DNA from: Dehalococcoidia bacterium
GTDB lineage: Bacteria > Chloroflexota > Dehalococcoidia > Lucifugimonadales > UBA3495
Reading direction: 5' to 3'
Assembly (NCBI GenBank): GCA_965222895.1
Contig: CBDCVB010000002.1
Span: 1,159,678 to 1,223,677, forward strand
Length of the DNA: 64,000 bases
The position numbers were made by a program, and so were the translations under genes. Shown here piece after piece: positions 24,559 through 64,000 of this stretch. Position 1 is the stretch's first letter. The number at the start of each line of letters is the position of its first letter. A model generated the notes under the pieces. It was given only the letters and a program-made list of their open reading frames with translations. It was not told the origin of the DNA and searched no databases.

Positions 24559-24655
24559 AACGTCAACCATCACCCGGCATTACCCTCAACCGCCCTAGAC
24601 TAAAGATCCAACACGCCAGCCGGCGCCACCAGTCAACAACACGGAGCAGACCAAA

Positions 24656-25543: not shown

Positions 25544-25567
25544 GGGAGCAACCAAACCGGCCCACGC

Positions 25568-26623: not shown

Positions 26624-26628
26624 CGGCC

Positions 26629-27507: not shown

Positions 27508-27550
27508 GGCGTTTATCTCCTTCCTGCGTCCAGCAGAGAGCGTTTCAAGA

Positions 27551-30500: not shown

Positions 30501-30592
30501 TAGGCGCGTATCCGAGCCAGCAGACGACCCTCGCGCCCGGGCCCGAACCCACCCGCGGAAAAACCCCGCCAGAAGCCGGGCCGGACACTCAT
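27551..30592 (-). CDS. Divergent SecA-like ATPase (1013 aa)
   Basis: SecA motor motifs: LASGEGKTV, VDEADQVLLDEAVTPLVIGG, DVDYVVDDGRVVLVDRETGRP...GMQSAVEAKEG, TGTAKSSADEFRRLYGLEVVVV, ATNMAGRGTDV, GLHLISTEFNESPRVALQLEGRVGRQG. Confidence 0.8.
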   Translation of the reverse strand: MSVRPGFWRGFSAGGFGPGREGRLLARIRAYRDEAGVGEWPDIRLRDVARSLADLASDEGLVRGFALVDETVRRRLGCWRVFGIDLEAEPVAVARARRAWAEAGPGGCGDVLLPGEFYREVRFLAGEWPELLFEPTDRQLLAGLHLWTGRVVELASGEGKTVSIVFPALFHALSGRTVHVGTANDYLAARDWGSLEAVYRALGVTAGYVVASMDAPARLAAYGCGVVYGTVREFGFDYLRDQLVTVAKDCVQGPLDVLIVDEADQVLLDEAVTPLVIGGDPVLGRGVIVRAERVVRELVDEQRRMAGSFRRSLAGLGDGVGDGDRALWLARGLVADPFDSDVRALAAGRAGLWRRVRRLLDQDGAGRPAPAVVEGLYCLVDPEGRYCSLQPAGLSFLEERLGDLFLAGQDPSGALEGRSGLLGQVYQLLRAHLLLRRDVDYVVDDGRVVLVDRETGRPRPDSHYRDGMQSAVEAKEGLVVHPDRRNLAELGVPGLLRLYADVCGVTGTAKSSADEFRRLYGLEVVVVASDPGFRRFLGSRVYQSVDDQLDAVVDEVKYCWSSGRPALVSCRTVERSLLISLRLEAEDIVHGLLNARTVVGEVSVVGAAGTLWAVTVATNMAGRGTDVVLSPGIDDRVLEGFVEVLRLRCTAGEGEAVVVRASTGTEAALLASRLSGETDLVLLGCWGGKGRLLVGPSWADSTWADSSCVPAHSELEFGLGLHLISTEFNESPRVALQLEGRVGRQGAFGSGRSLLVASDPGLSGMDFGELGTDDAGRACWQGRTVDMGLERQREAARLDAARARDVAVEYGAVMDLWAHNYYRVRRDLVSGSVGLLDAWVRGGVSGAVDGLVSRHFPGLTVDGYAERFAALSHNVKITFGLDAGAGLGCSLNDLGSLLGDLVTGRLEDMRRVLGQARFSELVRLLALGVGDELWEVHRELLRGMGTGSRLGGLELRTALAEYVIWAARQWWEFVEVWRGVFLSRLCLFPLDGLDVAGSADPPVVVPDLMGLVE

Positions 30593-31959
30593 CGCCCGCC
30601 GGAACCCCGCAGGTCGATGACCACCAGCCCAGCGTTGTGCTCTACCTCCAGCCAGTCGTCGTAGCGCTCAAACAATCGGTCCCGGCAACCCAAGACCGCG
30701 GCGGCAACGGCGGGACAACCGGCGGCGAACCGGCGACCCACCGCGCCGTCCAGAGCCCAATCGGGACTGACATCCCAGCACAGCCCCAGACGGAGGCAAT
30801 ATTCCTCGTACTCGGCCTGCAAGCGGCCATATTCGGCCTGGCTCCGGTACGGCAACGGCATGACGTAATACCGCTCGGAAAGATAGATGCCCAGCTCGTT
30901 CTCAAAGACCTGCACCATGTCCGCCCCGTCCAGCCGGCACTCCAGCGCCAGCAGGAGACCCAGCGGCACGTCCTGATCCACCCGGTGATAGCGGTAGTCC
31001 TCCGGCTCGCCCACCATCCTGACCCGCACCGGCTCGCCCAAATCCAAGAGACGCCGGCCCGAGCTACCAAGACAGAAGACGAAGGGCAGACAGCCGCCAG
31101 TGGCGTCCACCACCAACGGCTCGCCGTCCAGCCAGTACAAAAGCGCGAGATGATGCCAGTAGCGCATGTGCCGCTTGGCGAACCTGAAATCCAGCGTGCA
31201 GAGCAGCTCCCGGAGCCGGTCCACCGGCGGACGGCCGCCAGCGGGGCCAGCCAGGAGGTACTCCGACTCCAGACCGTAATGATCGGTCAGGAATTTCAGA
31301 GCCTGCACCTTCTCCGCACAAACCCCGCCGTACCCAGCCGCCATGTTGAGCACCGCCTGATCCCCAGTGCGGAAACGAAGCCCACCATCGACGAAGCGGG
31401 AATAGTTCTCGAAGTCGCTCCCGAAAATCCGACGGGCCAGCGCTAGCACCAGACCCAGCTCACTATCCGGCGCGTCAAGACCCAACACTCCCTCATCCCG
31501 GCAACCGGCCTCCAGAGCGCCGGCCACGAAATCCTCATACTCGCCCGCCGCGAGTCCCCAGCGGCGGGCGTGGAAAGCGGCCCAGTCCCGGTCATAGCCC
31601 GAGCCGCTCCGATCCAACGTCAGATCCACCAGGTCGAACTCGACGTCGCCGGCAACCGCCCTCCGGGCCACTGCCCCAGACCCCAGGTCCAACGGAATGT
31701 CGTCCTGAAGGAATCCAACCCCAGGCCACATGGCGGCCGGCCCAGAACCCAACCGGTACACCAGGTCCTGCAGACAGCGCAAACCGTGGCTATGCTCGGG
31801 CAACACCGATACCGAGGAGTCGGAGCCGTCCCAGTCTCGGAACCGGACGTCCAATAGACGACCCAGCGGCAGAGCGCGATCCCCAGGGTCATGGAGCCTC
31901 ATCGCCGAAGCCAGACCCGATGACTCGTCTGTGATCCGCAGAACAAAAGCAGTCATCAA
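30589..31959 (-). CDS. Hypothetical protein with transglutaminase-like (papain-fold) Cys-His-Asp core
   Basis: GYGGVCAEKVQALKFL...YWHHLALLYWLDGEPLVVDATGG fits the C...H...D spacing of the transglutaminase core. Its stop overlaps the SecA-like start (ATGA). The likely true start is the ATG at 31956. Confidence 0.55.
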   Translation of the reverse strand: MMTAFVLRITDESSGLASAMRLHDPGDRALPLGRLLDVRFRDWDGSDSSVSVLPEHSHGLRCLQDLVYRLGSGPAAMWPGVGFLQDDIPLDLGSGAVARRAVAGDVEFDLVDLTLDRSGSGYDRDWAAFHARRWGLAAGEYEDFVAGALEAGCRDEGVLGLDAPDSELGLVLALARRIFGSDFENYSRFVDGGLRFRTGDQAVLNMAAGYGGVCAEKVQALKFLTDHYGLESEYLLAGPAGGRPPVDRLRELLCTLDFRFAKRHMRYWHHLALLYWLDGEPLVVDATGGCLPFVFCLGSSGRRLLDLGEPVRVRMVGEPEDYRYHRVDQDVPLGLLLALECRLDGADMVQVFENELGIYLSERYYVMPLPYRSQAEYGRLQAEYEEYCLRLGLCWDVSPDWALDGAVGRRFAAGCPAVAAAVLGCRDRLFERYDDWLEVEHNAGLVVIDLRGSGGR

Positions 31960-32136
31960 ACTCCCTGGGAGCGCCGATTACCGGAGCCCAAATCCCGGCT
32001 GCTCCAAACCCACGATAGCACACCGGCACACTCCAGAGCCTACGAGCGACCATTACAGAAGCAGACCCGGCCGAAAAACCTCACAAATCCATCCCGGCAA
32101 ACGACCCGCGAACACGCCCAAAGGAGGAACCAAGGC

Positions 32137-33000: not shown

Positions 33001-33546
33001 TCCCTGTGTCGACACTCCCAAAGTAATGAAGGCTTACAGACCAGCCACGGTCCTACGTCACCGCCCGATTGTGGCGCTCCGCTGTGTGCGACGCTGCAGC
33101 GGTAGGAACCGCTCCATAAACGAGTTTCACCGATAGTAACCCAGCACCCGCCCCCGGAGCCTGGCCTTGGTGTCGGTTCCCGATCGCGGCCATACTGCAG
33201 CAGATTCCGTTCCCGTTGACCGCGGCGATTTAGATCAAATCAAGGTCCTGCCTTCCCACGCGCCTCGGACACTCCTTATCCCGAATCCACCGAAGGGAGA
33301 CGTCCGTGTCGTTGACACAAGGGATGATGGGTAAGGGAAGGCGAACTGGCCTAGCCAGATTCCAGTAGATGGGGATGAGGGTGGCGTGAGGGCAGCCACA
33401 CCGGCACGATGCTGGCGGCCGTGCGGCCATGGCGGGCGGAATTCGACAGGCGGTAGGCAGGAAGTGTCCCTCGCGGACCGAGTTGGCGCGAGTTGGCGAC
33501 GATGTTCAGTTGGCCGGATGGCGGGTCAGCGGGCTGGTCGCCGCCG

Positions 33547-34887
33547 TCAGTCAGGAGATGGCAGGGCGCGCAATCGAGCCAAGGCGCGACTGAACTGGTT
33601 TTCCCAGGGCCAGCGCTGGGGAAGATGCAAAGTGAGGCGGCGGGCCGAGCGGGTGAGCCGTCCGGCGAGGGAGCAGAAGCGTCGTCGGAGGGTCTTGGTG
33701 GTCACCACCTGCTCACCCAGACCGATGCGCGCCGTCCAGCGTGCCAGGTTGTGGGCGATCACCTGCACGGCCAGCCAGGCGGCGTTGGCGGGGAAGCGGC
33801 CCGAGGGGAGATGGTTCAACCCCACGCCGTACTTGAGGTCTCGGATGGCATTCTCGATCTCGGCGTGGCGCCGATGGTCGGCCGCCAGTTCCCGGGTTGC
33901 CCCGTCCCGGTCGGTGATGAAGCCGTGATAGCGGTAGGCGGCGAAGAGGGCCAACTGGGTACCGGGCGTGGGCTTCACCCGCCGGACGATGAGCCGCACC
34001 GGCGCGGCGTCGGGCTCAGTCTGGAAGGGGGTGTAGGTGGTCTCCGCCACGTCGGCGGCGCCGTCCATCCAGTAGGGAATCGGCGTCCAGGCATCTTCGG
34101 GTATGGCCTCGATGATATTCCGCAGGCGGGCGTGCTGGCGGACGGTGATGGAGTAGCGCACATCCATCTTGCGGCAGACCGCGACCAGGGCGTGGGCATA
34201 GAAGCCGCTGTCGGCCCGCACCGTGAGTTGTCCGGTGGCCCCGCCGTAGCGCACCCGGCCCACCGTCTCACACAGGAAGTGGGCGGCGCCCCGAGCGGTG
34301 TTGGCGCGGCCCGCGCGCAGCCGAGACACCAGCACGTCGCCGGTTCCGGCGGCAATGGCCAGCAGCGGGTGATAGCCTCGCTGGCCGGTGTAGCTGTGGT
34401 GGCGCGCCCCCTCCTTGGCCAGACCGTAGGTCTCGCAGCCGGTGGAGTCCAGGTCGATGGTCAGTGGCCCGTCGCCGGGTCCGGCCCCGGCGGCCCAGGC
34501 CCGGGCCAGCAGCTCCCGGCTCACCCGATCCAGTTGGCGGACGTGGCCCCACCGGAAGCTGCGCAGGAAGGTCCCCAGGGTGGATGGCGCCTTGACCACG
34601 CAGCCGAGAGCGCTGGCCGTCCCGCCGGTGCGCAACACGTCGGCGTCGTCGATGCAGTCGCCGCCAGCCAGCGCAGACGCCACCAGGGTCACAATCTTGT
34701 CGCCCGTGTTCGCCCGACCCGGGGCATTGCCCAGGTCGAGGCGCTGCTGGACCAGTTGCGGCAGGCCCAGGTGCTGGGCCAAGGTCGTGGGAAGGATCAG
34801 GCCGGCATTGTTGACCAGGCGGTGGTCATCGAAGGCGATGTGGATGCCGTCGGGGGAACTGCGTGGTAGCACCTTGCGTGGTAGCAT
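33547..34887 (-). CDS. IS1380-family transposase (element ends tentatively about 33456 and 34966)
   Basis: N-terminus ...FDDHRLVNNAGLILPTTLAQHLGL...GDKIVTLVASALAGGDCIDDADVLR is characteristic of IS1380. A weak inverted repeat ggcaggaagtgtccc / ggagcactttcttacc marks the possible ends. Confidence 0.8.
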   Translation of the reverse strand: MLPRKVLPRSSPDGIHIAFDDHRLVNNAGLILPTTLAQHLGLPQLVQQRLDLGNAPGRANTGDKIVTLVASALAGGDCIDDADVLRTGGTASALGCVVKAPSTLGTFLRSFRWGHVRQLDRVSRELLARAWAAGAGPGDGPLTIDLDSTGCETYGLAKEGARHHSYTGQRGYHPLLAIAAGTGDVLVSRLRAGRANTARGAAHFLCETVGRVRYGGATGQLTVRADSGFYAHALVAVCRKMDVRYSITVRQHARLRNIIEAIPEDAWTPIPYWMDGAADVAETTYTPFQTEPDAAPVRLIVRRVKPTPGTQLALFAAYRYHGFITDRDGATRELAADHRRHAEIENAIRDLKYGVGLNHLPSGRFPANAAWLAVQVIAHNLARWTARIGLGEQVVTTKTLRRRFCSLAGRLTRSARRLTLHLPQRWPWENQFSRALARLRALPSPD

Positions 34888-35810
34888 CTATTGGGTGCTC
34901 TTGGTCTGGGGTTGTTTTTCTGTCTCGAAAACCATTATCCCAGATGCACCGGAGCACTTTCTTACCTATTCAACCCGCCGCAACACTCATCTTGTCGGTG
35001 GATTGGGGCTTATAGGAGTGTCTTTTCAACTCACGTCGCAGGGTGGTCCGCAGATCGAAATCTGCGAGGACCACATTGTTCGATGAGTTAGGGCAGCAAG
35101 CGGTTCGACCTGATTGAACTGGGACCGCAGCTACGTGGGGTGATGAACAGGTATTCTCCTGCGATTCTAACGCTTCGTTCTAAACTTACCCTTCCTCGCC
35201 GGCGAGCCTCATCCAGAGGCCTTGAACTGAGCGCCCCGCAGTTGATAACCATCGATCCGCCGGTCCCGGCCTTGCTCGTCGAGTCCACCCTCCGTAAGTA
35301 CAGCCCCGCGGGCGTCGTCTCCGACTTCGTACGACGCCACCAAGCATGGTGGTGTCTCTCCGGGAACCCGGCGCCAGTGAGTTGGCAAGGCACCTATCGG
35401 CAAGGCTAAATCCACTTACCAACTGGATAATTCGTTATCCGCCAGAGTTTTTAAGTCCTTCCTGCCGTTGCCCGGAATCCAGGTTGTCCCATGATCCCAA
35501 ATGTGACGCCACCATAGGCGTAGCCAGCACGGCCAAACCGAGGACAACCTGCTCCGTGATTCCCTGAGGATGCCGCGTTGCGGGCAGCGGGTACCACCCT
35601 CACTCCGCAGGGTGTTCATGCGGCCAGCACGTCGGGCCGGCTCCCGATTTTCCCGGCCGTTTGCATGGCCCCTTACTCAATCCGCCCTTGGCAGGACGCA
35701 AGTACAGCAACAACGTCCGGGAAGACCATACTGTGCACCACAATACAACCAAACGGGGCTCCGACCCACAACACTTGAATCTGAACCTCGATGAGCGTTC
35801 GCTGTTCTAG

Positions 35811-37274
35811 TACTACAACGACGGGTTTAGGATGGCGGCTCCATCCTGCCTTCACGGCGGGCGGAGCGGCGTCTCTGGTGGGAGCGGCGCGCCCGCTCGT
35901 TGCGTAGCTGCGTATCCTCCAGCCACCGCAGCAACTCCTCTGGCCCGAACCGTTCCCGGGGCAGCATCTCCCGAACCACCCGGCACACTTGGGGACGGGT
36001 GATCCGAGGCATCTTTTTCCCCCCAAGCCTGCTGCAGGCCCAGCAGGAAAGCTCCACCCAGCAGGCACATGGCTATGTGGTGATGCCAGCCAGCCCAACT
36101 GCGGGTCTCGTATTCGTCCAGGCCCACGTCGCCCTTCTCCGTCTCGAACTCCGTTTCAATGGGCCACCTGGAACCGCCCACGTAGGCCAGGGTCTCCAGG
36201 GGAGTATCCTCGGCAGCGTTGGACAGGTAGTAGCGGGGTTCGCTGCCGTCCAGGTTCCGGCGGTAGACGGCCCATGCCTCCTGGCCCGGCTTGCCCTTTC
36301 GGGTTACCCGCACCCGCTGGGCGCAGAACATATAGCTCCGCGGCCCCTGGCTTCCCTGGGCCACCGTTATCTCCCGCCAGGCCTCATCCGGCAACTGGTC
36401 ACTGCGTTGCTCCATGGTACGACGCTGCCCGTCCCTGAGCCTGGGCTTGCGGGGGCGCCCGGACCCCTGAGCCCCCGGACTGGTCCAGGCCGACTCCCAC
36501 GCAGGCTCCAGGGGCCAGACCGGAGTGCTGCCCGGAACGTCCAGCACGTAGCGCATCCCCAGGGCCGCCAGGGACTCCCGAAAGGACGGCGACATCCCGA
36601 AGGCGTCGTCCCCGGCCACCCATCCGGCCTTGAGGTGGCCCAGCTCCAGGGCCCGCTCCAGCAGTTCCAGGGCCAACTCCGTCTTCGACCGGTAGCTCCG
36701 CCGCTCCTCGGGCACCGCCGCCGCCGCACAGCGGCCCTGATCCGAGGTCCAACTCTCCGGCAGATACAGCCCTTTGTCCACCAATGCCCGTCCCAGCGGG
36801 CTGACGTAGGCCAGGAACATCCCACCCTGGCAGTTGGCCACCTTGCCCAGCCGGCCGCAGTACTGCCGGGCTACCCCCACGGACTTCCTCCCCTGCTTGG
36901 GAAAGTCGCTGCCGTCCAACACCCACACCGCCTCGGGGTGCCCCAGCCTGGGGGCCAGGTATTCCTGCAGCCGCCCGATCACTGTCGCATCGGACCACCG
37001 GGCCTCGGTCAGAAAACGCTGCATCGCCCGGGCCGAGATGCCCACCGATTCCGACAGGTTCTCGGCGTTGCGCCGCTCCCCAGCCTGCACCAGCAGCCCC
37101 TGAAGATAGTTTCGGCTGTGCTCCCGCCACTGCTTGCGGCCGAAGGAGGCCGCAAAGAAGGCGTGAAATTCCTGAAAGCACTCGTAGACCCGCTTGAAGC
37201 TCGCCGCATCCATCACCCAAACCACCCACTATCATCTTGACAACTATCCTACCAAACAACCCGTCGTTGTAGTA
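35811..37274 (-). mobile_element. IS701-family insertion sequence, copy 2
   Basis: Same 15-bp inverted repeats and length as copy 1. CTAG at 35807-35810 and 37275-37278. Confidence 0.9.
35852..37225 (-). CDS. IS701-family DDE transposase
   Basis: Translated protein identical to 8098-9471. Confidence 0.85.
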   Translation of the reverse strand: MVWVMDAASFKRVYECFQEFHAFFAASFGRKQWREHSRNYLQGLLVQAGERRNAENLSESVGISARAMQRFLTEARWSDATVIGRLQEYLAPRLGHPEAVWVLDGSDFPKQGRKSVGVARQYCGRLGKVANCQGGMFLAYVSPLGRALVDKGLYLPESWTSDQGRCAAAAVPEERRSYRSKTELALELLERALELGHLKAGWVAGDDAFGMSPSFRESLAALGMRYVLDVPGSTPVWPLEPAWESAWTSPGAQGSGRPRKPRLRDGQRRTMEQRSDQLPDEAWREITVAQGSQGPRSYMFCAQRVRVTRKGKPGQEAWAVYRRNLDGSEPRYYLSNAAEDTPLETLAYVGGSRWPIETEFETEKGDVGLDEYETRSWAGWHHHIAMCLLGGAFLLGLQQAWGEKDASDHPSPSVPGGSGDAAPGTVRARGVAAVAGGYAATQRAGAPLPPETPLRPP

Positions 37275-37278
37275 CTAG

Positions 37279-38289: not shown

Positions 38290-38436
38290 ATGACCGCCCG
38301 CAAAACGAAAACCGACATCCCACCCGAGCTACGGGGATTCATGGCGGTGGTGGGCGAGATCGTCCAGGAACAACTCCGTGCGCAACGGCGGGAAGACGAT
38401 AAAATAGCCCGTGACGTCCGGCAGCGAGGAGATTAA
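38290..38436 (+). CDS. Possible 48-aa ORF immediately upstream of the serine recombinase
   Basis: ATG at 38290 through TAA at 38434-38436, 1 nt before the recombinase ATG. Charged helical sequence. Too short for the supplied ORF track. Confidence 0.25.
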   Translation: MTARKTKTDIPPELRGFMAVVGEIVQEQLRAQRREDDKIARDVRQRGD

Positions 38437-38437
38437 C

Positions 38438-40105
38438 ATGAAAGCAGCGACGTACGTGAGAGCGAGCTCTGAAGACCAGGTCGAAGGGTTCTCACTGGAT
38501 GCCCAGCGCCGGGTGATCACCGAGTTCTGCCAGGCCATGGGTTGGGACATTACTCACCAGTACGCCGATGAGGGCAAGTCAGCATGGGTCGAGTCCGCGG
38601 CGAAGCGCCCCGAGTTCAACCAGATGCTGATTGACGCCGCCAACCGGGAGTTCGACGTGGTGGTCACCCACAGCCTGGACCGGCTTTCCCGGAACCTGAT
38701 GGTCACCCTGAACGCCTTCCATACCTTTTCCTCCAATGGCATGACCTACGTCTCAGCCACCCAGGAGATCGATTACTCAACCCCGGAGGGCAAGCTGTTC
38801 ATGACCATGGTGGCGGCGTTCGCCCAGTACTTCTCAGACAGCCTCTCCGGCCACACCGGGAAGGGAATGCGGGAGCGAGTGCGGCAGGGACTGTTCAACG
38901 GCGAACCGCCCTTCGGCTACCAGCGCTGCGACGTTGTTTGCCTGGGAACCAACGATGAACACCAGGGCTGCCATATCGACCCGGAAGTCGGCCCGGAGGT
39001 ACTCTCCCTGTTCGAAAGGTATGCCTACGGGTCCGATTCAATGTCTACCCTGGCCAGGGAGCTCAACGCCAAGGGATTCCGCACCAACGGTCGTTCCCGC
39101 TCTCCCGACACCGGCGACGGCGACGACTCCAAGGGCGGCCGCTTCACCAACTGGTCCTTGCGGGACATCCTGGAAAACCAGTTCTACGTGGGCAAGGTTC
39201 GGCACAAGGATGAATACTTCGACGGTTTGCACCAACCCCTCATCAGCCAGGAGCTGTTCGACGAGGTGCAAAAGCGTAAAACCCAGAACCGCCACCGGAA
39301 GTCGGCCACCGTAAGCCGCCTCAGCAAAAACCCCCACATGCTCACCGGCCTGCTGCGCTGGGACCAGTGCGGCGCCAAGCTCTGGTCCCAGAACCAGGGC
39401 CGCACGGCGGGAACCTACTACGTCGTCCCGCGGAAGGGCCATGATCACCGCTGCGCCTACGCTGGCAGGTACATCAAGGGGCAGGTGATTGAAGACCAGG
39501 CCGACCTGATCTTCGCTGATTTCACCCTCCGCGACGACTGGATCGACTGGGTTATCGAGACCTACGTCGACAAATCGGACCTGGCTGAAGGCTTCAGGAG
39601 GCGGGAAACCCTGGCCCAGAAGATCGACCGGGCCCGGGACCTATACCTGGAGGGCGACCTGAGCAAGGAACGTTACCACCTGATCAAATCGAACGCCGAA
39701 GCAGAAATGGATAGCGTCTACATCCCGGAACTGGACGATGCGCAGGAGGCGGCCAAGTTGCTACAGGATTTCAATGCTCTGTGGCGAGCCGCCACGGCCG
39801 GCCAGCGCAATCGTCTGTTGTTGACCATTCTGGATGCGATATACGTGGATGTGGAGAGCCGGCAAATCGTGGGGCTCAGGCCACGGCAGGCCTTTCTGAC
39901 CCTATTCGAGGCGGTTGAAGATAATGACGCAGTTATATTATCATCAAACCTGACCGGAAATTTTGGAAGGGCTGGTGGAGACGGGGGAGAGTCGAACTCC
40001 CCGTCCAGAAACTTCCCTGACCAGATGTACTACAAGCTTGTTCGGCGCTTTGATCTCGCCGCTACAGACTCCCGCCGACGGGATTCCGCTGCAGCCAGCC
40101 GATAA
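38438..40105 (+). CDS. Large serine recombinase. The 3' end of the ORF runs antisense into tmRNA.
   Basis: Resolvase catalytic motif YVRASSEDQ, VVVTHSLDRLSRN, a recombinase domain and a Cys-containing zinc-ribbon region. GGAG lies 8 nt upstream of the ATG at 38438. Confidence 0.85.
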   Translation: MKAATYVRASSEDQVEGFSLDAQRRVITEFCQAMGWDITHQYADEGKSAWVESAAKRPEFNQMLIDAANREFDVVVTHSLDRLSRNLMVTLNAFHTFSSNGMTYVSATQEIDYSTPEGKLFMTMVAAFAQYFSDSLSGHTGKGMRERVRQGLFNGEPPFGYQRCDVVCLGTNDEHQGCHIDPEVGPEVLSLFERYAYGSDSMSTLARELNAKGFRTNGRSRSPDTGDGDDSKGGRFTNWSLRDILENQFYVGKVRHKDEYFDGLHQPLISQELFDEVQKRKTQNRHRKSATVSRLSKNPHMLTGLLRWDQCGAKLWSQNQGRTAGTYYVVPRKGHDHRCAYAGRYIKGQVIEDQADLIFADFTLRDDWIDWVIETYVDKSDLAEGFRRRETLAQKIDRARDLYLEGDLSKERYHLIKSNAEAEMDSVYIPELDDAQEAAKLLQDFNALWRAATAGQRNRLLLTILDAIYVDVESRQIVGLRPRQAFLTLFEAVEDNDAVILSSNLTGNFGRAGGDGGESNSPSRNFPDQMYYKLVRRFDLAATDSRRRDSAAASR

Positions 40106-42778: not shown

Positions 42779-42782
42779 CTAG

Positions 42783-44246
42783 TACTACAACGACGGGTTG
42801 TTTGGTAGGATAGTTGTCAAGATGATAGTGGGTGGTTTGGGTGATGGATGCGGCGAGCTTCAAGCGGGTCTACGAGTGCTTTCAGGAATTTCACGCCTTC
42901 TTTGCGGCCTCCTTCGGCCGCAAGCAGTGGCGGGAGCACAGCCGAAACTATCTTCAGGGGCTGCTGGTGCAGGCTGGGGAGCGGCGCAACGCCGAGAACC
43001 TGTCGGAATCGGTGGGCATCTCGGCCCGGGCGATGCAGCGTTTTCTGACCGAGGCCCGGTGGTCCGATGCGACAGTGATCGGGCGGCTGCAGGAATACCT
43101 GGCCCCCAGGCTGGGGCACCCCGAGGCGGTGTGGGTGTTGGACGGCAGCGACTTTCCCAAGCAGGGGAGGAAGTCCGTGGGGGTAGCCCGGCAGTACTGC
43201 GGCCGGCTGGGCAAGGTGGCCAACTGCCAGGGTGGGATGTTCCTGGCCTACGTCAGCCCGCTGGGACGGGCATTGGTGGACAAAGGGCTGTATCTGCCGG
43301 AGAGTTGGACCTCGGATCAGGGCCGCTGTGCGGCGGCGGCGGTGCCCGAGGAGCGGCGGAGCTACCGGTCGAAGACGGAGTTGGCCCTGGAACTGCTGGA
43401 GCGGGCCCTGGAGCTGGGCCACCTCAAGGCCGGATGGGTGGCCGGGGACGACGCCTTCGGGATGTCGCCGTCCTTTCGGGAGTCCCTGGCGGCCCTGGGG
43501 ATGCGCTACGTGCTGGACGTTCCGGGCAGCACTCCGGTCTGGCCCCTGGAGCCTGCGTGGGAGTCGGCCTGGACCAGTCCGGGGGCTCAGGGGTCCGGGC
43601 GCCCCCGCAAGCCCAGGCTCAGGGACGGGCAGCGTCGTACCATGGAGCAACGCAGTGACCAGTTGCCGGATGAGGCCTGGCGGGAGATAACGGTGGCCCA
43701 GGGAAGCCAGGGGCCGCGGAGCTATATGTTCTGCGCCCAGCGGGTGCGGGTAACCCGAAAGGGCAAGCCGGGCCAGGAGGCATGGGCCGTCTACCGCCGG
43801 AACCTGGACGGCAGCGAACCCCGCTACTACCTGTCCAACGCTGCCGAGGATACTCCCCTGGAGACCCTGGCCTACGTGGGCGGTTCCAGGTGGCCCATTG
43901 AAACGGAGTTCGAGACGGAGAAGGGCGACGTGGGCCTGGACGAATACGAGACCCGCAGTTGGGCTGGCTGGCATCACCACATAGCCATGTGCCTGCTGGG
44001 TGGAGCTTTCCTGCTGGGCCTGCAGCAGGCTTGGGGGGAAAAAGATGCCTCGGATCACCCGTCCCCAAGTGTGCCGGGTGGTTCGGGAGATGCTGCCCCG
44101 GGAACGGTTCGGGCCAGAGGAGTTGCTGCGGTGGCTGGAGGATACGCAGCTACGCAACGAGCGGGCGCGCCGCTCCCACCAGAGACGCCGCTCCGCCCGC
44201 CGTGAAGGCAGGATGGAGCCGCCATCCTAAACCCGTCGTTGTAGTA
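42783..44246 (+). mobile_element. IS701-family insertion sequence, copy 3
   Basis: Same inverted repeats and length as the other copies. CTAG at 42779-42782 and 44247-44250. Confidence 0.9.
42832..44205 (+). CDS. IS701-family DDE transposase
   Basis: Translated protein identical to the other two copies. Confidence 0.85.
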   Translation: MVWVMDAASFKRVYECFQEFHAFFAASFGRKQWREHSRNYLQGLLVQAGERRNAENLSESVGISARAMQRFLTEARWSDATVIGRLQEYLAPRLGHPEAVWVLDGSDFPKQGRKSVGVARQYCGRLGKVANCQGGMFLAYVSPLGRALVDKGLYLPESWTSDQGRCAAAAVPEERRSYRSKTELALELLERALELGHLKAGWVAGDDAFGMSPSFRESLAALGMRYVLDVPGSTPVWPLEPAWESAWTSPGAQGSGRPRKPRLRDGQRRTMEQRSDQLPDEAWREITVAQGSQGPRSYMFCAQRVRVTRKGKPGQEAWAVYRRNLDGSEPRYYLSNAAEDTPLETLAYVGGSRWPIETEFETEKGDVGLDEYETRSWAGWHHHIAMCLLGGAFLLGLQQAWGEKDASDHPSPSVPGGSGDAAPGTVRARGVAAVAGGYAATQRAGAPLPPETPLRPP

Positions 44247-44250
44247 CTAG

Positions 44251-57306: not shown

Positions 57307-58266
57307 TCAGACGGCCAGGGTGACCAGGAGTTGAGGAACTGGAGTATCTCGTAAAAATGCCTCGATTTCTTGGAACAGCGCCCCGAAATCATCGGGGTTG
57401 TTTTGCTTTGGAGTCAGGTCAGCGGAAGGGAGAATATCCAGATGCGTACTGGCGAATTCATCCCATGCTTCAACGATGTATTCGGCGCGGGCCAAATCAT
57501 CTAAATCGGAGAATGAAAAACCTGTGGCTAAGCCTGGGGCACGGTCTCTTTCCAGCCGGTCAAAGAGTTGATTCACGACCTCGGCAAATTCACGCACGCA
57601 GGCCGTCATCTCGGCGAAGTCCGCAACTGCAATTTCCAGGCTGAAGTCATCACCTTCATGTTCGTAGGCAAAAGGGGCCGACAGCGTGGCTTCGGAGATC
57701 TGTTGGATGAGCCGGTTCAGCCGGATGTTGACAGATGCAATCCGCGGGGAGTAATCACTCGATGCAATTGCAGTTGGGAGGATGTATTCCGTAAAAGCAC
57801 CGATCTGTTGCAGCATAATCCGGAGGGCCCCCAAAAAACCGCGACCCAGATGGATGAATTCGGAAGCGGGAATAGATACGGTGGCCGTATCTGGGTGGTA
57901 TTGGTCGTATTGATATACGGGCGATTGGGCGGCGGGTTCGGCCAGGCGATACGAGGCCAGTCTGGCCGTCTGCTCCGGGGAGGGCCAGAGTTGACGAGGA
58001 ACCGGGATGTTGCCAGAGCGTTTTTCGGCTTGGGCGATGTCGTAAGCGGCCTGCATCCGGTACCAGGAGCCAGGGCTGCTGCCGAATACCTTGCCCACGC
58101 GGATGGCCATTTCCGGGGACAGGCCGGCGCGTCCAGTCACCAAGTCAGACAGTTCGCTGGCGGGGACGCCCAGAGATGCCGCGGCTTCCGGGATGGTGAG
58201 GCCGAGGGGTTCGATGCACTCGTGAAGGATAATGGGCCCCGGATGGGCCGGGTCTTGCATCGGCAT
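57307..58266 (-). CDS. higA: HigA-type HTH antitoxin with an about 220-aa C-terminal extension of unknown function
   Basis: N-terminal HPGPIILHECIEPLGLTIPEAAASLGVP...LSPEMAIRVGKVFGSSPGSWYRMQAAYD is a HigA/XRE HTH. The rest has no recognisable motif. Confidence 0.7.
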   Translation of the reverse strand: MPMQDPAHPGPIILHECIEPLGLTIPEAAASLGVPASELSDLVTGRAGLSPEMAIRVGKVFGSSPGSWYRMQAAYDIAQAEKRSGNIPVPRQLWPSPEQTARLASYRLAEPAAQSPVYQYDQYHPDTATVSIPASEFIHLGRGFLGALRIMLQQIGAFTEYILPTAIASSDYSPRIASVNIRLNRLIQQISEATLSAPFAYEHEGDDFSLEIAVADFAEMTACVREFAEVVNQLFDRLERDRAPGLATGFSFSDLDDLARAEYIVEAWDEFASTHLDILPSADLTPKQNNPDDFGALFQEIEAFLRDTPVPQLLVTLAV

Positions 58267-58293
58267 ATTCCTTGCTCCTGTCCTTTGTTCAGG

Positions 58294-58571
58294 CTAATGA
58301 TAGTCTATCAAATCGACATCGCAAACATTTGGGCCGGTGAATCGAAAGACGACGCGCCAGTTGCGGGACACGGTGACTGCCCAATAGCCGGCAAGGTTGC
58401 CCAGCAGGGATGCAAGTCGAACCCCGGTTTGTCTATATCCATGTGATCCTCGGCCTGCTCCAAACCAGTCAAGATGAAGTGAATCTTATCGGCGTACTGG
58501 GGCGGTACCCGCCGGCGCTCGCCCTTTTCATAGAAACGCCGGAGACCATTGTGCCGGAAATTGACGATCAC
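58294..58571 (-). pseudogene. higB: HigB-type (RelE/ParE superfamily) toxin with a 1-nt frameshift near 58407-58409
   Basis: MIVNFRHNGLRRFYEKGERRRVPPQYADKI...GFDLHP continues in another frame as LLGNLAGYWAVTVSRNWRVVFRF...DVDLIDYH* (stop at 58294-58296). Confidence 0.7.
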
Positions 58572-58590: not shown

Positions 58591-60093
58591 CTAGATTGGC
58601 GGGCGTTGTTGGTGCCAATCCGTGGTTTGCTGGTAGGCGTGGGCGGTGCGGAGGAGGGTTGGTTCGGAGAGGTGGGGGCCGATGAGTTGCAGGCCGACTG
58701 GCAGCGGGCTGTCCGAATCGGTGGGGTTGGCGAAGCCGCAGGGGATGGACATGGCGGGCAGGCCGGCGATGTTTACGGGCAGGGTGTTGATGTCGACGAG
58801 GTACATACGCACGGGGTCGTCGGTGCGGTCGCCGAGGGGGAAGGCTACTATGGGGGACACGGGGGCGACCAGGGCATCGACTTCGGAGAAAACGCGGTCG
58901 AAGTCCTGCCGGATCAGGGTTCTGACCTGCTGGGCCTTGTGGTAGTAGGCGTCGTAGTAGCCGGAGGAGAGGGCGAAGGCTCCCAGCATGATGCGGCGTT
59001 TGACTTCGGGGCCGAAGCCGTGCTGCCGGGTGCGCTCCATTGCTTGCCACATATCGCCGTCGCCGCGATGGGAGTAGCCGTACTTGACGCCATCGTAGCG
59101 GGCCAGGTTGGCGGAGCACTCGGAGGGGGCGATGATGTAGTAGCAGGCCAGGGCGTACTGGGTGCTGGGGAGGGACACTGGATGGATTTCCGCGCCCATT
59201 GCCGCGAGCTGATCGATGGCGGCGGTTACCGCGACTCGCACGCCTTCGTCCATGCCGGCGCCGAAGTATTCTTCCGGCACGCCGAGACGCAGACCGGATA
59301 CGTTTCCGGTGAGGGCGGCGGAGTAGTCGGGCACGGCGTCGGGCAGCGAGGTGGCATCGCGGGGGTCGTGGCCGGCGATGGCCTGCAGGATGAGGGCGCT
59401 GTCGGCGGCGCTGCGGGAGAGCGGGCCGATTTGGTCCAACGATGACGCGTAGGCGACGAGGCCGTAGCGGCTGACGCGCCCGTAGGTGGGTTTGAGTCCG
59501 GTGATGCCGCAGAAGGACGCGGGTTGGCGGATGCTGCCGCCGGTGTCGGTGCCGAGGGCGAAGGCGGCGGCGCCGGCCGCGACCGCCGCCGCCGAACCGC
59601 CGCTGCTGCCGCCGGGGACGCGGGTGGTGTCCCAGGGGTTTTGAGTGGGGAAGAAGGCCGAGTTTTCGGTGGAGGAACCCATGCCGAATTCATCCAGGTT
59701 GCCCTTGCCCAGCATCACGGCGCCCTGCTGGCGCAGGCGGGCGACGGCGGTGGCGTCGTAAACCGGGACGTAGTCGGCCAGCATTTGGGAGGCGCAGGTG
59801 GTGCGTATCCCCTTGGTGCAGAGCAGGTCTTTGATCTGCATGGGAATGCCGGTGAGGGGGTTGGCCAGTCTCTCGGAGTGAGAACGGGCGGCGATGAGTC
59901 GGTCGGCAGCGGCGGCCTGCTGGCGGGCGGTGTCGGCGGTTACGGTGATGTAGGCAGAGAGCCGGTGGTCGACGGCGGCAGTGCGGTCGAGGCAGGCTTC
60001 GGTGAGCTCGACGCTGCTGATTTCGCGCTGGGCGAGCCGTTGGGAGGCATCGACTACGGAGAGCTGCCAGAGCTCAGTGGCGGGATTTTGCAT
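58591..60093 (-). CDS. gatA: Asp-tRNA(Asn)/Glu-tRNA(Gln) amidotransferase subunit A
   Basis: Amidase signature GGSSGGSAAAVAAG and about 500 aa. Directly downstream of gatC. Confidence 0.9.
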   Translation of the reverse strand: MQNPATELWQLSVVDASQRLAQREISSVELTEACLDRTAAVDHRLSAYITVTADTARQQAAAADRLIAARSHSERLANPLTGIPMQIKDLLCTKGIRTTCASQMLADYVPVYDATAVARLRQQGAVMLGKGNLDEFGMGSSTENSAFFPTQNPWDTTRVPGGSSGGSAAAVAAGAAAFALGTDTGGSIRQPASFCGITGLKPTYGRVSRYGLVAYASSLDQIGPLSRSAADSALILQAIAGHDPRDATSLPDAVPDYSAALTGNVSGLRLGVPEEYFGAGMDEGVRVAVTAAIDQLAAMGAEIHPVSLPSTQYALACYYIIAPSECSANLARYDGVKYGYSHRGDGDMWQAMERTRQHGFGPEVKRRIMLGAFALSSGYYDAYYHKAQQVRTLIRQDFDRVFSEVDALVAPVSPIVAFPLGDRTDDPVRMYLVDINTLPVNIAGLPAMSIPCGFANPTDSDSPLPVGLQLIGPHLSEPTLLRTAHAYQQTTDWHQQRPPI

Positions 60094-60101
60094 CGGTGGG
60101 G

Positions 60102-60392
60102 TTACTCGTCCAGCACGGCGCGCACCTGGAAGAAGTCGCCGCGCCGGCGGGGAGCGTTGCGGAGGGTGTCCTCGGCGGGAAGGCAGTGGTCGATGTCGTC
60201 GTCGCGCATCACGTTGTCGAGGTTAGCGACGTGGGCGGTGGCCGGTACATCGGTGGTGTCGAGGGATTGCAGGGCGTCGAACTGTTCCAGTATCTGGGAC
60301 AGCTGAGCGGCGAAGGCGTCGATTTCAGCCTCAGAAAGGGAGATGCGTGCCAGGGCAGCGATGTGTTCTACCTGGGTGCGGTCGATGGGCAT
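60102..60392 (-). CDS. gatC: Asp-tRNA(Asn)/Glu-tRNA(Gln) amidotransferase subunit C
   Basis: 96 aa, VEHIAALARISLSEAEI...QLSQILEQFDALQ pattern. Confidence 0.85.
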   Translation of the reverse strand: MPIDRTQVEHIAALARISLSEAEIDAFAAQLSQILEQFDALQSLDTTDVPATAHVANLDNVMRDDDIDHCLPAEDTLRNAPRRRGDFFQVRAVLDE

Positions 60393-60395
60393 TAT

Positions 60396-61754
60396 TTACA
60401 AAGCCTCGTCAATGCCCTCCGTAAGATCGCCCACTTGTATCGAGGCCGCTTCGCCCATTGCTTCCTCGATAGTATCGGCGTCAATGGAAGTTACGCCCTT
60501 ATCCGCTGCGTGCAGCACAGCAAGAGCGGCGTTTGCCAGTAGATCGCGCGGATGTTGGCTCTTGCCAACCAGCGCGCTCATCCCAGCTTCGGTGAATGGA
60601 GCGATCGTCCCGTTCTCATCTTTATTGATGCGGAAATAGTCCAGATGCGCGATGATGATTTCGCGAGCCTGGTCCTGTGTGGGCAGAGGCAACTCCACAG
60701 ACGTAGGAGCATCGGGGTCTAGACGACTTACACCTGCTAGACCTGATTCCCGCCACGGCTGCGAAAGGGCGAAAGCCGACGATTGGTGAGTAGTTAGCAC
60801 ACAGGAAAAGAAATCGTGTTCCCCGTTGGCATATGCGGGCCTCACGGTGCACTGTGCCAACTCTTTGGCAAATTCGGTACGATGCCGCCTTGGCATTTGG
60901 TCCGTCAAATTTTCAATGTCATCGACGAACAGATAGCCGCCGGCAAATCCGGCGGAGCGCAAATAACGCACGATGTCGTCGAAGAAGAGTGTGCGAGACA
61001 TTTCTAAACCTTTAGTGTCGCGTTGCACGTAGTAAGGACGCAGGAGCCTGTCCCGTCTCAGATCGCGCAGGTAGTCTTCGAAAGTGCCCATAGCCAATGC
61101 CCTTGCTGGCCCTCTCTCAACACCATCGTTGATCAGTTGATGCTCGACGCTGTTGTCCAAATCAGCAGCTGAAATGCCATTGGCCTGCAGTAGTGCGTCG
61201 TTCAGCAAATTGCGCCAGTCGGCGACGCCGTTTGCGTTGACCACAGCGGCTACCTGGTCATCGGAGAGCATATTGCGACGCAATGCAAATCGCGACACCT
61301 TCAGCACATCATTTTGGCACGTGTCGACGAGTGCTGCCCAAGCAAGTTGCTCAATGTAACGCCGGTCAACTTGGTCTGGAAACGCCACGTAGACTACCAA
61401 GGCCGAGAAACGGCCTCCGAACTCCGTAACTCCCCAATCTGCATTAATGCGCTGCTGGAAAAACCGAAGCAGAGCGGTTTTTCCCATACCACGTCCGCTT
61501 TGCGTATCGCCCTTTGCCCAAAGGGTCGCCATCCTTGCGCGGTTGGCGAAGTCATTCGGACGAATCAAGAGTCGCTCGAATTTTTGAATTTCGGCCTGCA
61601 CTGGCGCTTCAGCATAGATTCTACCATTACGACGGTCATCCTTGTTGTAAGGGTCGACGACGGGCGTGGTTGGAAATGGCAAATCTTTAAACCCCAACAA
61701 CTCATAAAGTGAGGTAGTTGGAGCAGCAGGTCGTTGGAGAGGTAGGTTCATCAT
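60396..61754 (-). CDS. ORC/Cdc6-like P-loop (AAA+-type) ATPase, 452 aa
   Basis: Walker A SGRGMGKTALL and Walker B YLFVDDIENL, with a C-terminal helical region. The start ATG at 61752-61754 overlaps the upstream stop (ATGATGA) with GGAGG 9 nt upstream. The listed start at 61937 is rejected. Confidence 0.7.
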   Translation of the reverse strand: MMNLPLQRPAAPTTSLYELLGFKDLPFPTTPVVDPYNKDDRRNGRIYAEAPVQAEIQKFERLLIRPNDFANRARMATLWAKGDTQSGRGMGKTALLRFFQQRINADWGVTEFGGRFSALVVYVAFPDQVDRRYIEQLAWAALVDTCQNDVLKVSRFALRRNMLSDDQVAAVVNANGVADWRNLLNDALLQANGISAADLDNSVEHQLINDGVERGPARALAMGTFEDYLRDLRRDRLLRPYYVQRDTKGLEMSRTLFFDDIVRYLRSAGFAGGYLFVDDIENLTDQMPRRHRTEFAKELAQCTVRPAYANGEHDFFSCVLTTHQSSAFALSQPWRESGLAGVSRLDPDAPTSVELPLPTQDQAREIIIAHLDYFRINKDENGTIAPFTEAGMSALVGKSQHPRDLLANAALAVLHAADKGVTSIDADTIEEAMGEAASIQVGDLTEGIDEAL

Positions 61755-62842
61755 CAGAGCCTCCGGATCAGGTTGTGCAATTGGGTAGCCTGGCGAGTGC
61801 GAACCAGGGGGCGACGTTGGCTGGTTATCCGATCGTAATGCAAGCCTGCTGACAACACGGGCGGCTGCAGGTCGAGCAAGCGATTGAGGCCATCGTCGAA
61901 GGCGGCCTCTGGTATCATAAGATACTCGCATACCCAATCACGCAAATCGGGAATATCGTAGTAACCGCCTTCAGGAGACAGACTGGCGAAGGCTTGGTCA
62001 AGTGCCACTAGCAGACAGTCTTGGTGGTTGGGATTAGCCATAGCGGGTTCGCTCAAGTAGATTTTGTACATCGTTTGGTCTGCTAGAGGTATTTGCAAGG
62101 GCGTGTACCAGGAATTGGGAGGCGAATCCGCAACACAAGGGGAGTAGGTTTTTTCAAATTCGCAGATTTGCGCGATAGTCCTTGATTTGTTAAGTAATCG
62201 CAAACTGACCAGACGATCGCATATGCTCCTGAAGAGGGCTACTCCCATTTTTTGGTTTGGCATTACTTTTTGCTGAATCTTGCTGCGCAATGTGTCTTCT
62301 ATCTTGCTGGGACTTTGTCCGGTAAGGCTTTCTGATAGGCCATAAACCACCGACTCAGCGCACTGGCCGAAGGTGGGCTGCAACAACCTTTCCAGATAAT
62401 CGGGCTCAGCAAGGCCTGCTGATGACACGATAGGCTGCCATACAGTACCTTGCCGGAGGTGGGTTTGTACTACAGCGCGCAGGTTGTCGTAAGTTTGCAA
62501 ATGTACGGAAATCATCAACCGGCGTAAGTCTTGGTGTTTTTTGTCCGCGAGCAGGGTAAGCGCTTGCTTGCCGGTTTCGGTAAGATCGAAGCGGCTCTGT
62601 ACTGACTTTGCGAATTGAAAATGGACCAACTCTTGGCAGATTTTCTCTCCGACGGTTTGGAATGTTCCTTTAGGTTCAGGCAGCATCAGGCGCAAGGCCC
62701 TATCATTCACGAATTTCAGCACGCTGCGTGATATAGCTTCAGTCTGTTGGCCACGGTCTGAATTTGCCGGCATTGCGTTGAGCACTCGAAGACCAATGTA
62801 GTGATAACTTACGTCGGTAACGTTGTAGCTGTTGATGTTCAT
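61754..62842 (-). CDS. Hypothetical protein (362 aa), middle gene of the three-gene module
   Basis: Long ORF with GGAGG 9 nt upstream of its ATG and 2 nt after the upstream stop. No recognisable motif. Confidence 0.6.
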   Translation of the reverse strand: MNINSYNVTDVSYHYIGLRVLNAMPANSDRGQQTEAISRSVLKFVNDRALRLMLPEPKGTFQTVGEKICQELVHFQFAKSVQSRFDLTETGKQALTLLADKKHQDLRRLMISVHLQTYDNLRAVVQTHLRQGTVWQPIVSSAGLAEPDYLERLLQPTFGQCAESVVYGLSESLTGQSPSKIEDTLRSKIQQKVMPNQKMGVALFRSICDRLVSLRLLNKSRTIAQICEFEKTYSPCVADSPPNSWYTPLQIPLADQTMYKIYLSEPAMANPNHQDCLLVALDQAFASLSPEGGYYDIPDLRDWVCEYLMIPEAAFDDGLNRLLDLQPPVLSAGLHYDRITSQRRPLVRTRQATQLHNLIRRL

Positions 62843-62844
62843 TG

Positions 62845-63630
62845 TCAGGCACCTCCAGCGGATTTGGCGAGGCGGAATGCGTTGAGGAGGTCTGTGCAGT
62901 CGCCATTCGCCTGTCGCAGTTGCTGGGCCAACGCATCTGTTTGCAGAGGCCCAACAGCCTTGAACAGGAGGCTATCTTCAGAAAGGTAACCGCAACGATT
63001 GTCCAGCCAAGTTTCGTCCAGCGCAACGTAGAGGTTGTTGATCTGGGCGCACAAATCATCAAAGCGGTTTTGAATATCGGGCGCAATTGCCAAGCCTTCA
63101 TGTAGCTCATATTCCATACGCCTTGCGTTGTCAATCAGTACCGGGAGGGGCCGGACGTCAGACGCTACTGGATGAATGCCCAGCCCCAAGCAAGCAGCCA
63201 AAGCTCTAGGTTCGAACGAATTTCTGGACATAAAGGCGAGGCAAATGTCCTCCGACGCAAGCGTAGTATTCGCCAATAGATAATCTAGAACCTTGGCGAA
63301 GAAAATTACCACATCGTTTTTCCCCGGCATATCACCGAGGTTCTTTGCTTCCAAGATGGCGGTGGCAGTTGATGACCTAGCGACGATGTCAATTTCGTGA
63401 TTAACTCCCGATGCGGTATCAAGGCCGGCTCCAAGCCTCAACTCACGTTGCTCAGAGATGGTCCAACCCTGCAAGTTTTGAGTGCAACTTTCCCGAAAGC
63501 GCTGTTCAAACCCTTGGTCCAGCACTTGCTCTCGTAAGGCGTGAGGCCACTCCAAACTAACGAACCGGAAGCAGCGTTTGAGGAACTCTAACGTTGATGT
63601 TGCCGGTGCGATTTCAGGTCTAATGGGCAC
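62845..63630 (-). CDS. PD-(D/E)xK (restriction-endonuclease-fold) nuclease-like protein, GTG start
   Basis: GVNHEIDIVARSSTATAILEAKNLGD matches the D...E-x-K core of Mrr/restriction-endonuclease-like folds. The C-terminal about 120 aa is helical and of unknown function. Confidence 0.6.
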   Translation of the reverse strand: MPIRPEIAPATSTLEFLKRCFRFVSLEWPHALREQVLDQGFEQRFRESCTQNLQGWTISEQRELRLGAGLDTASGVNHEIDIVARSSTATAILEAKNLGDMPGKNDVVIFFAKVLDYLLANTTLASEDICLAFMSRNSFEPRALAACLGLGIHPVASDVRPLPVLIDNARRMEYELHEGLAIAPDIQNRFDDLCAQINNLYVALDETWLDNRCGYLSEDSLLFKAVGPLQTDALAQQLRQANGDCTDLLNAFRLAKSAGGA

Positions 63631-63688
63631 AGTGAATTACTTGGCCGGCGGGGTGCGTATGCCATGTGACATTGGGGTTCCTGTCAGG

Positions 63689-63697
63689 ATTATAACA
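63689..63697 (-). promoter_or_regulatory. Putative extended -10 promoter (TGT-TATAAT) for the three-gene module
   Basis: Minus strand reads tgttataat about 59 nt upstream of the GTG at 63630, in the 81-nt gap after the SDR remnant. Confidence 0.35.
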
Positions 63698-63711
63698 TTG
63701 CAACGCGCAGG

Positions 63712-64000
63712 TCAGCTCATTTCGGAGCCGCCGGAGACGCTGATGGAGAGGCTGGTTATGTAGTCGGATTCGGCGGAGGAAAGGAAGGCGGCGGCGCGGG
63801 CGATGTCGTCTCCCTGGGCGTCTCGACGCGAGCGGCCCAGGGATGGGCGTAGCGTGAGCGGTTCGAGTTTCCTTTTTTGTAGCCAACGATTGTCGGCGCG
63901 ACAACGACGGGATGTTGCCCCGCACTTATCCTGCGCAGTAGCAGCCAAATGCGATAGTCGTGTATCATTGCCGCGTCAGTGCCACTGGCGCAACAACCCA
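63712..64000 (-). pseudogene. Short-chain dehydrogenase/reductase, 3' part, apparently frameshifted. The 5' end lies outside the window.
   Basis: The C-terminus DIARAAAFLSSAESDYITSLSISVSGG is SDR-like. The upstream SDR-like segment (VVVAPTIVGYKK) lies in a different frame. Confidence 0.4.

Follow-up and report, generated by a model that had tools for sequence, protein, structure and literature searches.

A mobile three-gene cassette with a predicted nuclease and an ORC/Cdc6-type ATPase in a Dehalococcoidia bacterium as a candidate conflict system

Which function could be served by three compact genes of atypical composition that lie directly ahead of gatCA in a Dehalococcoidia bacterium? The question was raised by a stretch of 64,000 nucleotides (nt) from this organism, hereafter the window, meaning the whole stretch that was analyzed. 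At its far end, the genes g1, g2 and g3 form a cassette, which is referred to as the trio. An initial annotation had read the trio as a candidate undescribed module of the defence type, composed of a PD-(D/E)xK nuclease, a protein without a placeable motif and an ORC/Cdc6-like ATPase. The computational follow-up described here supports a conflict-type module, while defence as such is what we infer from it. With slightly better than even confidence, the trio is regarded as a mobile conflict system of the restriction-like type, in which three components act on DNA with the use of ATP.

The minus strand from 63630 down to 60396 holds three intact, translationally coupled genes, as had been annotated. 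The first gene, g1 (62845..63630, minus strand, 261 amino acids (aa)), begins with a GTG start codon, and its N-terminus MPIRPE is common to homologues. A gap of just 2 nt (TGAcaATG), in agreement with the annotation, separates it from g2 (61754..62842, minus strand, 362 aa). The TGA stop of g2 and the ATG start of g3 (60396..61754, minus strand, 452 aa) overlap by 1 nt at 61754 (cTGATGatg). Here, the annotation had quoted an ATGATGA overlap at 61752-61756; the overlap of stop and start is real, but the quoted string is the adjacent one, which is a minor imprecision. The two GGAGG sites that had been placed inside the ends of the preceding genes were found again on the minus strand, one as a putative ribosome-binding site of g2 within the 3′ end of g1 (62852..62856, starting at 62856), the other as that of g3 within the 3′ end of g2 (61760..61764, starting at 61764). 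The trio is also as A/T-rich as described, with a GC content of 0.526 compared to 0.620 for the window (standard deviation among equal-length windows 0.023), and none of 1144 non-overlapping equal-length windows was as low. At third codon positions, the GC content (GC3) amounts to 0.56 in the trio and to 0.81-0.86 in gatC, gatA and asnS.

A locus scan with one genome per species (185,579 species) found the trio at 57 loci in at least eight phyla (loci are numbered with the prefix L), well outside the circle of close relatives; the initial annotation had proposed such a check of co-occurrence. The carriers belong to Chloroflexota (mostly Dehalococcoidia), Binatia, Latescibacterota, Verrucomicrobiota, Entotheonella, Acidobacteriota, Planctomycetota and Pseudomonadota. 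Linkage is obligate: the order g1-g2-g3, the strand and the tight spacing are constant in all loci that are not cut by contig ends. Co-evolution of the three genes is seen in the correlation between their pairwise distance matrices (r=0.76-0.89), and the ratio of nonsynonymous to synonymous substitution rates (dN/dS) of 0.08-0.24 in each of them indicates purifying selection. A conserved fourth gene, for example a methyltransferase or an integrase, was not found in the flanks. In the remote loci L072-L074, a g1-like protein of 247 aa is accompanied by a g2-like protein of 385 aa (E=8.5e-30) and a g3-like protein of 411 aa (E=3e-97), and the order in L072 is the same. Other remote branches show a changed order, namely ATPase-X-nuclease in L075 and X-ATPase-nuclease in L070. 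That the three-way linkage outlasts changes in the order of the genes argues strongly for joint action of the three proteins.

Two further observations concern individual copies. L008 and L052, both on OY282456.1, are two complete trios at different sites of one Dehalococcoidia genome, with 51-59% protein identity. Split or truncated copies occur in L065 (9877-11236, with g3 as 129 + 319 aa), L038, L049 and L053, and judging from their sequences they may reflect decay or long-read indel errors.

The comparison of loci also revealed how the trio travels. In 48 of 49 loci, it has a lower GC content than its flanks, with a mean difference of 8.7 points, and the atypical composition noted initially therefore holds against the flanks at other loci as well as against the window. 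In the locus pairs L001/L002, L017/L018, L033/L036 and L021/L050, DNA of the cassette that is 94-96% identical lies between unrelated flanks, and the homology gives out 0-195 bp ahead of g1 and 3-37 bp past the g3 stop; the mobile unit measures 3.25-3.45 kb. Inverted terminal repeats were not found, the cassette contains no recombinase gene, and, with L072-L074 as the exception, direct repeats in the flanks were at chance level at the other 48 loci tested. An imperfect 15-nt repeat in the window (60143 and 63644) lies away from the borders and is at chance level. The exception, L072-L074, is inserted between hypD and hypE and flanked by the perfect 16-bp direct repeat ACTACCAGTACGGAGA, whose copies in L072 are located at 3451-3466 (3′ end of hypD) and 6871-6886 (just before the ATG of hypE). 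By its sequence, this pair looks like a target duplication, and it was seen at no other locus. The trio had no match in IMG/VR viral contigs, INPHARED phage genomes or PLSDB plasmids. Many trio-bearing metagenome contigs are just 3.4-4 kb long, and a small circular element of approximately 3.5 kb was considered as a candidate. It was rejected, as the contigs of L063 and L064 are linear chromosomal pieces whose ends lie 130-190 bp ahead of g1 and approximately 100 bp past g3 and do not overlap.

At one chromosomal site, the exchange of alleles can be followed directly. The position next to gatC is common to the window and L005, L016, L027, L028, L052, L063 and L065, and the SDR gene upstream is also common to these loci wherever the contig reaches far enough. 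The genome closest to the window is that of L016, with 89% identity in GatA, 90% in GatC, 81-91% in the flanking DNA and a nearly identical promoter region. Exactly across the trio, the DNA identity falls to 50-72%, and the proteins share 55-62%. The L016 trio is, however, 85% identical to that of L014, which is situated in a different context. Conflict genes typically show such swapping of divergent alleles at one conserved position, and the swapping also explains the assembly breaks at the cassette borders. A GatC-based search for empty sites in metagenomes returned five loci, all of them distant (47-52% identity). Taken together, the trio has spread horizontally as a bare cassette, with allele replacement at a fixed chromosomal site.

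The same site defines the transcriptional setting. An extended −10 box, TGTTATAAT (63689..63697, minus strand, starting at 63697), lies within the 81-nt gap between the stop of the SDR gene and the start of g1, and is proposed as promoter from its sequence and the comparison with sister loci. It is the TGnTATAAT box pointed out initially; of the four other loci with this context and region, three (L016, L028 and L052) retain such a box at the corresponding position. A simple sigma-70 scan did not report the box of the window because a good −35 element is lacking. At the other end, gatC (60102..60392, minus strand), which is context and lies outside the cassette, has its ATG 3 nt past the g3 stop; the corresponding gap in sister loci measures 3-39 nt. 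The minus strand showed no terminator-like site from g3 to gatC, and an Rfam search of 59500-64000 gave no match. Owing to this short distance and the missing terminator-like site, gatCA is probably co-transcribed with the cassette, and the essential gatCA genes would probably be read through from, or depend on, the cassette promoter.

Regarding the proteins, the catalytic signature of g1 consists of E42, H78-E79-x-D81 and E94-x-K96 and includes the motif HEIDIVA...ILEAKN that had been recognized before. Across 48 divergent relatives, down to approximately 16% identity, H78, D81, E94 and K96 are the sole invariant positions, and E42 is nearly so. An hhalign comparison placed residues 80-161 of g1 on residues 202-278 of E. 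coli Mrr (P=0.0013), with D81/E94/K96 on D203/Q217/K219, and the catalytic motif of McrC aligns with the g1 motif likewise. Weak matches to NERD (PF08378, E=0.003) were obtained for two distant g1 relatives, and a profile search of the PDB with the g1 alignment gave Can2 and AF1548 at the motif, both sub-threshold, and otherwise noise. No family was found for g1 in Pfam, NCBIfam and PADLOC at E<=1, apart from a spurious match to MTase_II (E=0.038). The C-terminal part (approximately 170-261) is variable and looks helical. Based on the invariant residues and the alignment to Mrr, the predicted assignment of g1 as a PD-(D/E)xK nuclease of the Mrr/NERD-like kind, which the initial annotation had anticipated in its first part, is accepted.

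Relatives of g1 are few, with 139 found among 1.84 billion representative proteins. Three distant ones, P0442, P0453 and P0476, are fusions of the nuclease domain with an N-terminal domain (approximately 200 aa) that contains the pattern ARDxAGHxGKPY. We read its Rx4H pattern as resembling HEPN, and it has no Pfam match. N-terminal extensions of P0229, P0367 and P0377 were considered as fusions as well and rejected, since they look like mis-called start codons.

For g2, a confident structure model was obtained (pLDDT, the predicted local distance difference test, 93.9; pTM, the predicted template modeling score, 0.92), which found no match with E<0.1 in the PDB and a viral structure library. 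The weak fold matches are tandem winged-helix proteins, namely TFIIIC tauB, SelB, Stn1, MukE, IclR and TrmB. One weak match in the viral library was named after a FokI-DNA complex (E=0.72), and no solved FokI chain was among the top 50 structural matches in the PDB. In our reading of the model, g2 would be a new arrangement of folds that comprises three to four helix-turn-helix-plus-wing units and a small beta region; this call is based on the secondary-structure string and the weak tandem winged-helix matches, none of which is significant. A recombinase, DDE, RNase H-like or other enzyme fold was not seen in the model. Sequence searches of Pfam, NCBIfam, PADLOC (including the DptG and SspB models) and PHROGs gave no match, and the initial statement that the second gene has no placeable motif is confirmed by the library and fold searches, neither of which pointed to a recognizable family. 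The mean pairwise identity of g2 is 52%, and residues 161-200 are hypervariable. Two conserved motifs, F-x-K-[ST]-Y-S-P-C (229-236, approximately 62137-62158) and E-P (265-266, approximately 62047-62052), lie in the beta-rich part between the winged-helix units, with F229, Y233, E265 and P266 being invariant.

The third protein, g3, contains Walker A GRGMGKT (87-93), Walker B LFVDDIE (275-281) and sensor 1 LTTH (320-323), each of which is invariant or nearly so in 116 sequences; the Walker motifs GRGMGKT and FVDDIE had already been named. Its model (pLDDT 86) has the strand order of an AAA+ protein, with lid helices at 360-436. The best Foldseek match was Orc1 of A. pernix (2v1u, E=5.6e-4, approximately 12% identity), followed by BrxC (9zdx, E=2e-3; 9zll, E=1.2e-2); further matches were 1w5s (A. 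pernix ORC2), 7jgr (Drosophila ORC/Cdc6) and 2qby (S. solfataricus Cdc6/Orc1). RuvB, TnsC (8glu, E=0.012; 8fcu, E=0.016) and the proteasome were weaker than the top matches. The best matches are thus archaeal Orc1/Cdc6 and BrxC, not DnaA, DnaC or IstB, in line with the ORC/Cdc6-like ATPase of the initial annotation. In library scans (Pfam, NCBIfam, PADLOC, PHROGs), AAA_16 alone appeared, sub-threshold, and profile searches of PDB sequences with the g2 and g3 alignments gave noise only. A helical insert of approximately 135 residues (about 133-268) follows strand 2 (117-123) and precedes the Walker B strand (270-277). This insert is unusually large and sits where the initiator-specific insert (ISM/HEH) sits; a variable patch, 161-220, falls within it. 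The model shows no C-terminal winged helix, as the lid helices are followed by a disordered tail (437-452) without wing strands. According to this predicted structure, g3 is an ORC/Cdc6/BrxC-type AAA+ ATPase that lacks the usual C-terminal winged helix. The variable patches of all three proteins (161-200 in g2, 161-220 in g3 and the C-terminal part of g1) may represent specificity or interface surfaces.

From these parts, a division of labor, a target and a defence role of the trio can be proposed, all of which we infer. The multi-winged-helix protein g2 would recognize DNA, and its hypervariable residues 161-200 may set the specificity. Lacking a winged helix itself, g3 would borrow g2 in trans and assemble on DNA as an ATP-driven switch or loader, and the Mrr/McrC-like nuclease g1 would then cut the DNA. 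Since no methyltransferase accompanies the cassette, discrimination would either be type IV-like, directed at modified or marked foreign DNA, or proceed by sensing the state of the DNA.

Several points weigh against a restriction-like conflict system. The nearest two genes per side, considered for 45 loci, are mostly metabolic (luciferase-like monooxygenases, SDRs, amidohydrolases), and an association with defence islands can therefore not be claimed. About eight clear defence genes were counted among the 148 nearest neighbors of these loci, a raw number without matched control loci, and single loci adjoin DpdF, AbiEii, type I/IIG restriction-modification genes or Old. None of the three proteins has a relevant match at E<=1 in PADLOC-DB v2.0.0, which includes candidate PDC/HEC systems, Ssp, Dnd/Dpt, BREX and McrBC, or a match in Pfam, NCBIfam and PHROGs; the initial annotation had likewise found no named defence system to which the trio could be matched. 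The g3 proteins of other loci are 55-69% identical to that of the window, which is high for a sensor of fast-evolving phage parts. The fold assignment of g1 was made from motifs and weak profile matches. Finally, the stable seat upstream of gatCA in one Dehalococcoidia lineage could fit a domesticated cellular role, too.

Such a role would be that of a horizontally acquired module for DNA maintenance (repair, replication restart or chromosome handling) that now serves its host, in which a structure-specific nuclease is combined with an ORC-like loader and a partner that binds DNA. High conservation and strong purifying selection in all three genes, ordinary metabolic or core genes as neighbors and the position upstream of gatCA, which is stable within one lineage, are what would be expected from it. 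Moreover, the combination of ORC/Cdc6 with a tandem winged-helix partner recalls initiator/loader pairs. We nevertheless judge it quite unlikely, given that the trio is rare and patchy (57 loci in 185,579 species), its composition is always foreign, the allele phylogeny disagrees with the flanks, and divergent alleles occur at the same site and, as two copies, in one genome. The copies in L038, L049 and L065 (with its split g3) also look broken, although sequencing errors could be the cause. The evidence for movement would in turn suit a selfish cassette, whose nuclease, aided by the ATPase and the DNA binder, drives the spread or retention of the cassette itself. This could happen through copying into allelic sites in a homing-like manner or, as in restriction-modification genes, through post-segregational killing, and defence would be secondary or absent. 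A selfish cassette would account for a bare 3.25-3.45 kb unit that moves with no integrase, transposase or vector DNA, is swapped at the same SDR-gatC site, is wedged directly ahead of essential gatCA and, in the remote hypD/hypE branch, is flanked by a perfect 16-bp direct repeat. This explanation appears rather unlikely when it is considered that there is one copy per genome, except for the single genome with two divergent copies, and that terminal inverted repeats are missing and direct repeats in the other 48 loci are at chance. In addition, neither a recombinase nor an RNase H-like fold is seen in the g2 model, the short contigs are linear rather than circular, and the trio is absent from the phage, plasmid and viral collections.

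The bare borders, the SDR-gatC allele swaps, the 16-bp hypD/hypE duplication and the seat before essential genes would all be explained by a recombinase-free autonomous element, in which the winged-helix protein and the ORC-like ATPase guide the nuclease to cut specific chromosomal junctions and host repair copies the cassette in; to this, we assign a slim chance. The order nuclease-X-ATPase further resembles tnsA-tnsB-tnsC, TnsC is among the weaker fold matches of g3 (8glu, E=0.012; 8fcu, E=0.016), and a faint PHROGs match to a 'DNA transposition protein' (E=0.31) was recorded, all of which would agree with a Tn7-like transposition core, in which a novel transposase would be joined by a TnsA-like nuclease and a TnsC-like AAA+ ATPase. 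Yet the confident g2 model (pLDDT 94) shows no DDE/RNase H-like or recombinase fold, ORC/Cdc6 and BrxC beat TnsC for g3, and neither transposon ends, a general target duplication, a TniQ/TnsD-like gene nor cargo was found for a unit that occurs in a single copy per genome. The fold of g2 and the missing transposon ends largely refute this candidate, and we consider it very improbable.

Apart from the trio, the window contains other features of interest. Between gatA and asnS (57307-58571), a HigB-like toxin (87 aa) is paired with a helix-turn-helix antitoxin that has a long C-terminal extension (319 aa). The GC3 of this pair is lower (0.62-0.66). The close relative L016 lacks the pair at the corresponding site and L065 has it, which makes it a second, small variable islet. 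At least three copies of a 1472-bp insertion sequence that encodes a DDE_5 transposase (457 aa) were found (8053-9524, 35807-37278 and 42779-44250); they are 100% identical, and about 250 bp of the DNA beside them is duplicated as well. A related pair of open reading frames lies at 33493-34887, and another DDE_5 transposase is encoded at 15668-17032. Between the insertion sequence copies, a large serine recombinase of 564 aa with Resolvase and Recombinase domains (38411-40105) may mark an integrated element. The region 19000-32000 shows a strong strand asymmetry, with a GC skew of −0.16 to −0.31 and an AT skew of mostly +0.1 to +0.36 (+0.07 in one window), and harbors secA (27551-30592, minus strand).

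If the proposed reading holds true, the trio is an unnamed three-component DNA-targeting system, counting several hundred clusters of sequences from soil, sediment and sponge-associated bacteria, which are rarely sampled for defence biology. It would show an ORC/Cdc6-type ATPase without its own DNA-binding domain working together with a multi-winged-helix partner and an Mrr-like nuclease, and this would bear on the use of related ATPases in BREX (BrxC) and Ssp (SspBC). The sharp borders and the allele replacement at the same site furthermore provide a clean case for the movement of recombinase-free gene cassettes.

Among known systems, the type IV enzymes Mrr and McrBC of E. coli would be the nearest relatives of the nuclease and also the nearest functional analogy. 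The core of g1 aligns to D203/Q217/K219 of Mrr and to the McrC motif, and in both cases a nuclease is combined with an NTP-driven AAA+ partner without a cognate methyltransferase. The E. coli immigration control region, which holds the Mrr and McrBC genes, is mobile and low in GC, as is the trio. In contrast, the ATPase of the trio belongs to the ORC/Cdc6 clade and is not a McrB GTPase, DNA binding would reside on a separate protein (g2), and there are no significant matches over whole proteins. With archaeal Orc1/Cdc6, g3 shares the AAA+ core, the lid and a helical insert after strand 2, but it lacks the C-terminal winged helix, its insert comprises approximately 135 residues, its identity to Orc1 is approximately 12%, and it is part of a bacterial mobile cassette alongside a nuclease. 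BREX is comparable in that BrxC ranks second among the structural matches of g3 (9zdx, E=2e-3), and a stand-alone ORC/Cdc6 ATPase in a defence system has been described with BrxD (PMC12839542). The trio differs from BREX in the lack of PglZ, a methyltransferase, BrxA, BrxB and BrxL, in the lack of a match to the PADLOC BREX models and in the size of g3, which has 452 aa compared to about 1200 aa in BrxC.

The pairing of SspB (triple winged helix-turn-helix (wHTH)) and SspC (Orc/Cdc6) was pointed out in the main text of a study by Rakesh, Aravind and Krishnan (NAR 2024; PMC10853773). Compared to SspABCD, the trio has no SspA or SspD (sulfur transfer) and no modification genes, includes a nuclease as third partner and matches none of the PADLOC Ssp models. 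In its section 22, the same work predicted in silico mobile gene neighborhoods with Orc/Cdc6, a restriction endonuclease (REase, in part with ASCH) and a triple-wHTH protein that resembles DndG. Going by the main-text description, this class is the nearest published description of the trio. It likewise unites an ORC/Cdc6 ATPase, a REase and a multi-wHTH protein (g2 by our reading) in one operon, and like the trio it was described as mobile and conflict-related and is known in silico. Set against that description, g1 has no ASCH (or any Pfam) match and a C-terminal part that looks helical, g2 is conserved (52%) while the related wHTH proteins of allied operons are termed 'rapidly evolving' there, and the trio has no sequence match to the DptG, SspB and SspC models. 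The initial label 'undescribed' consequently applies to the family, but not to the theme of Orc/Cdc6, REase and multi-wHTH, which the main text of that study had sketched in silico. Judged by sequence comparison, the family of the trio appears unnamed and unmodelled, with its class of architecture foreseen. Within this frame, the trio represents a well-founded and widely distributed candidate among many of its kind, in which cassette mobility and allele turnover can be seen with unusual clarity.

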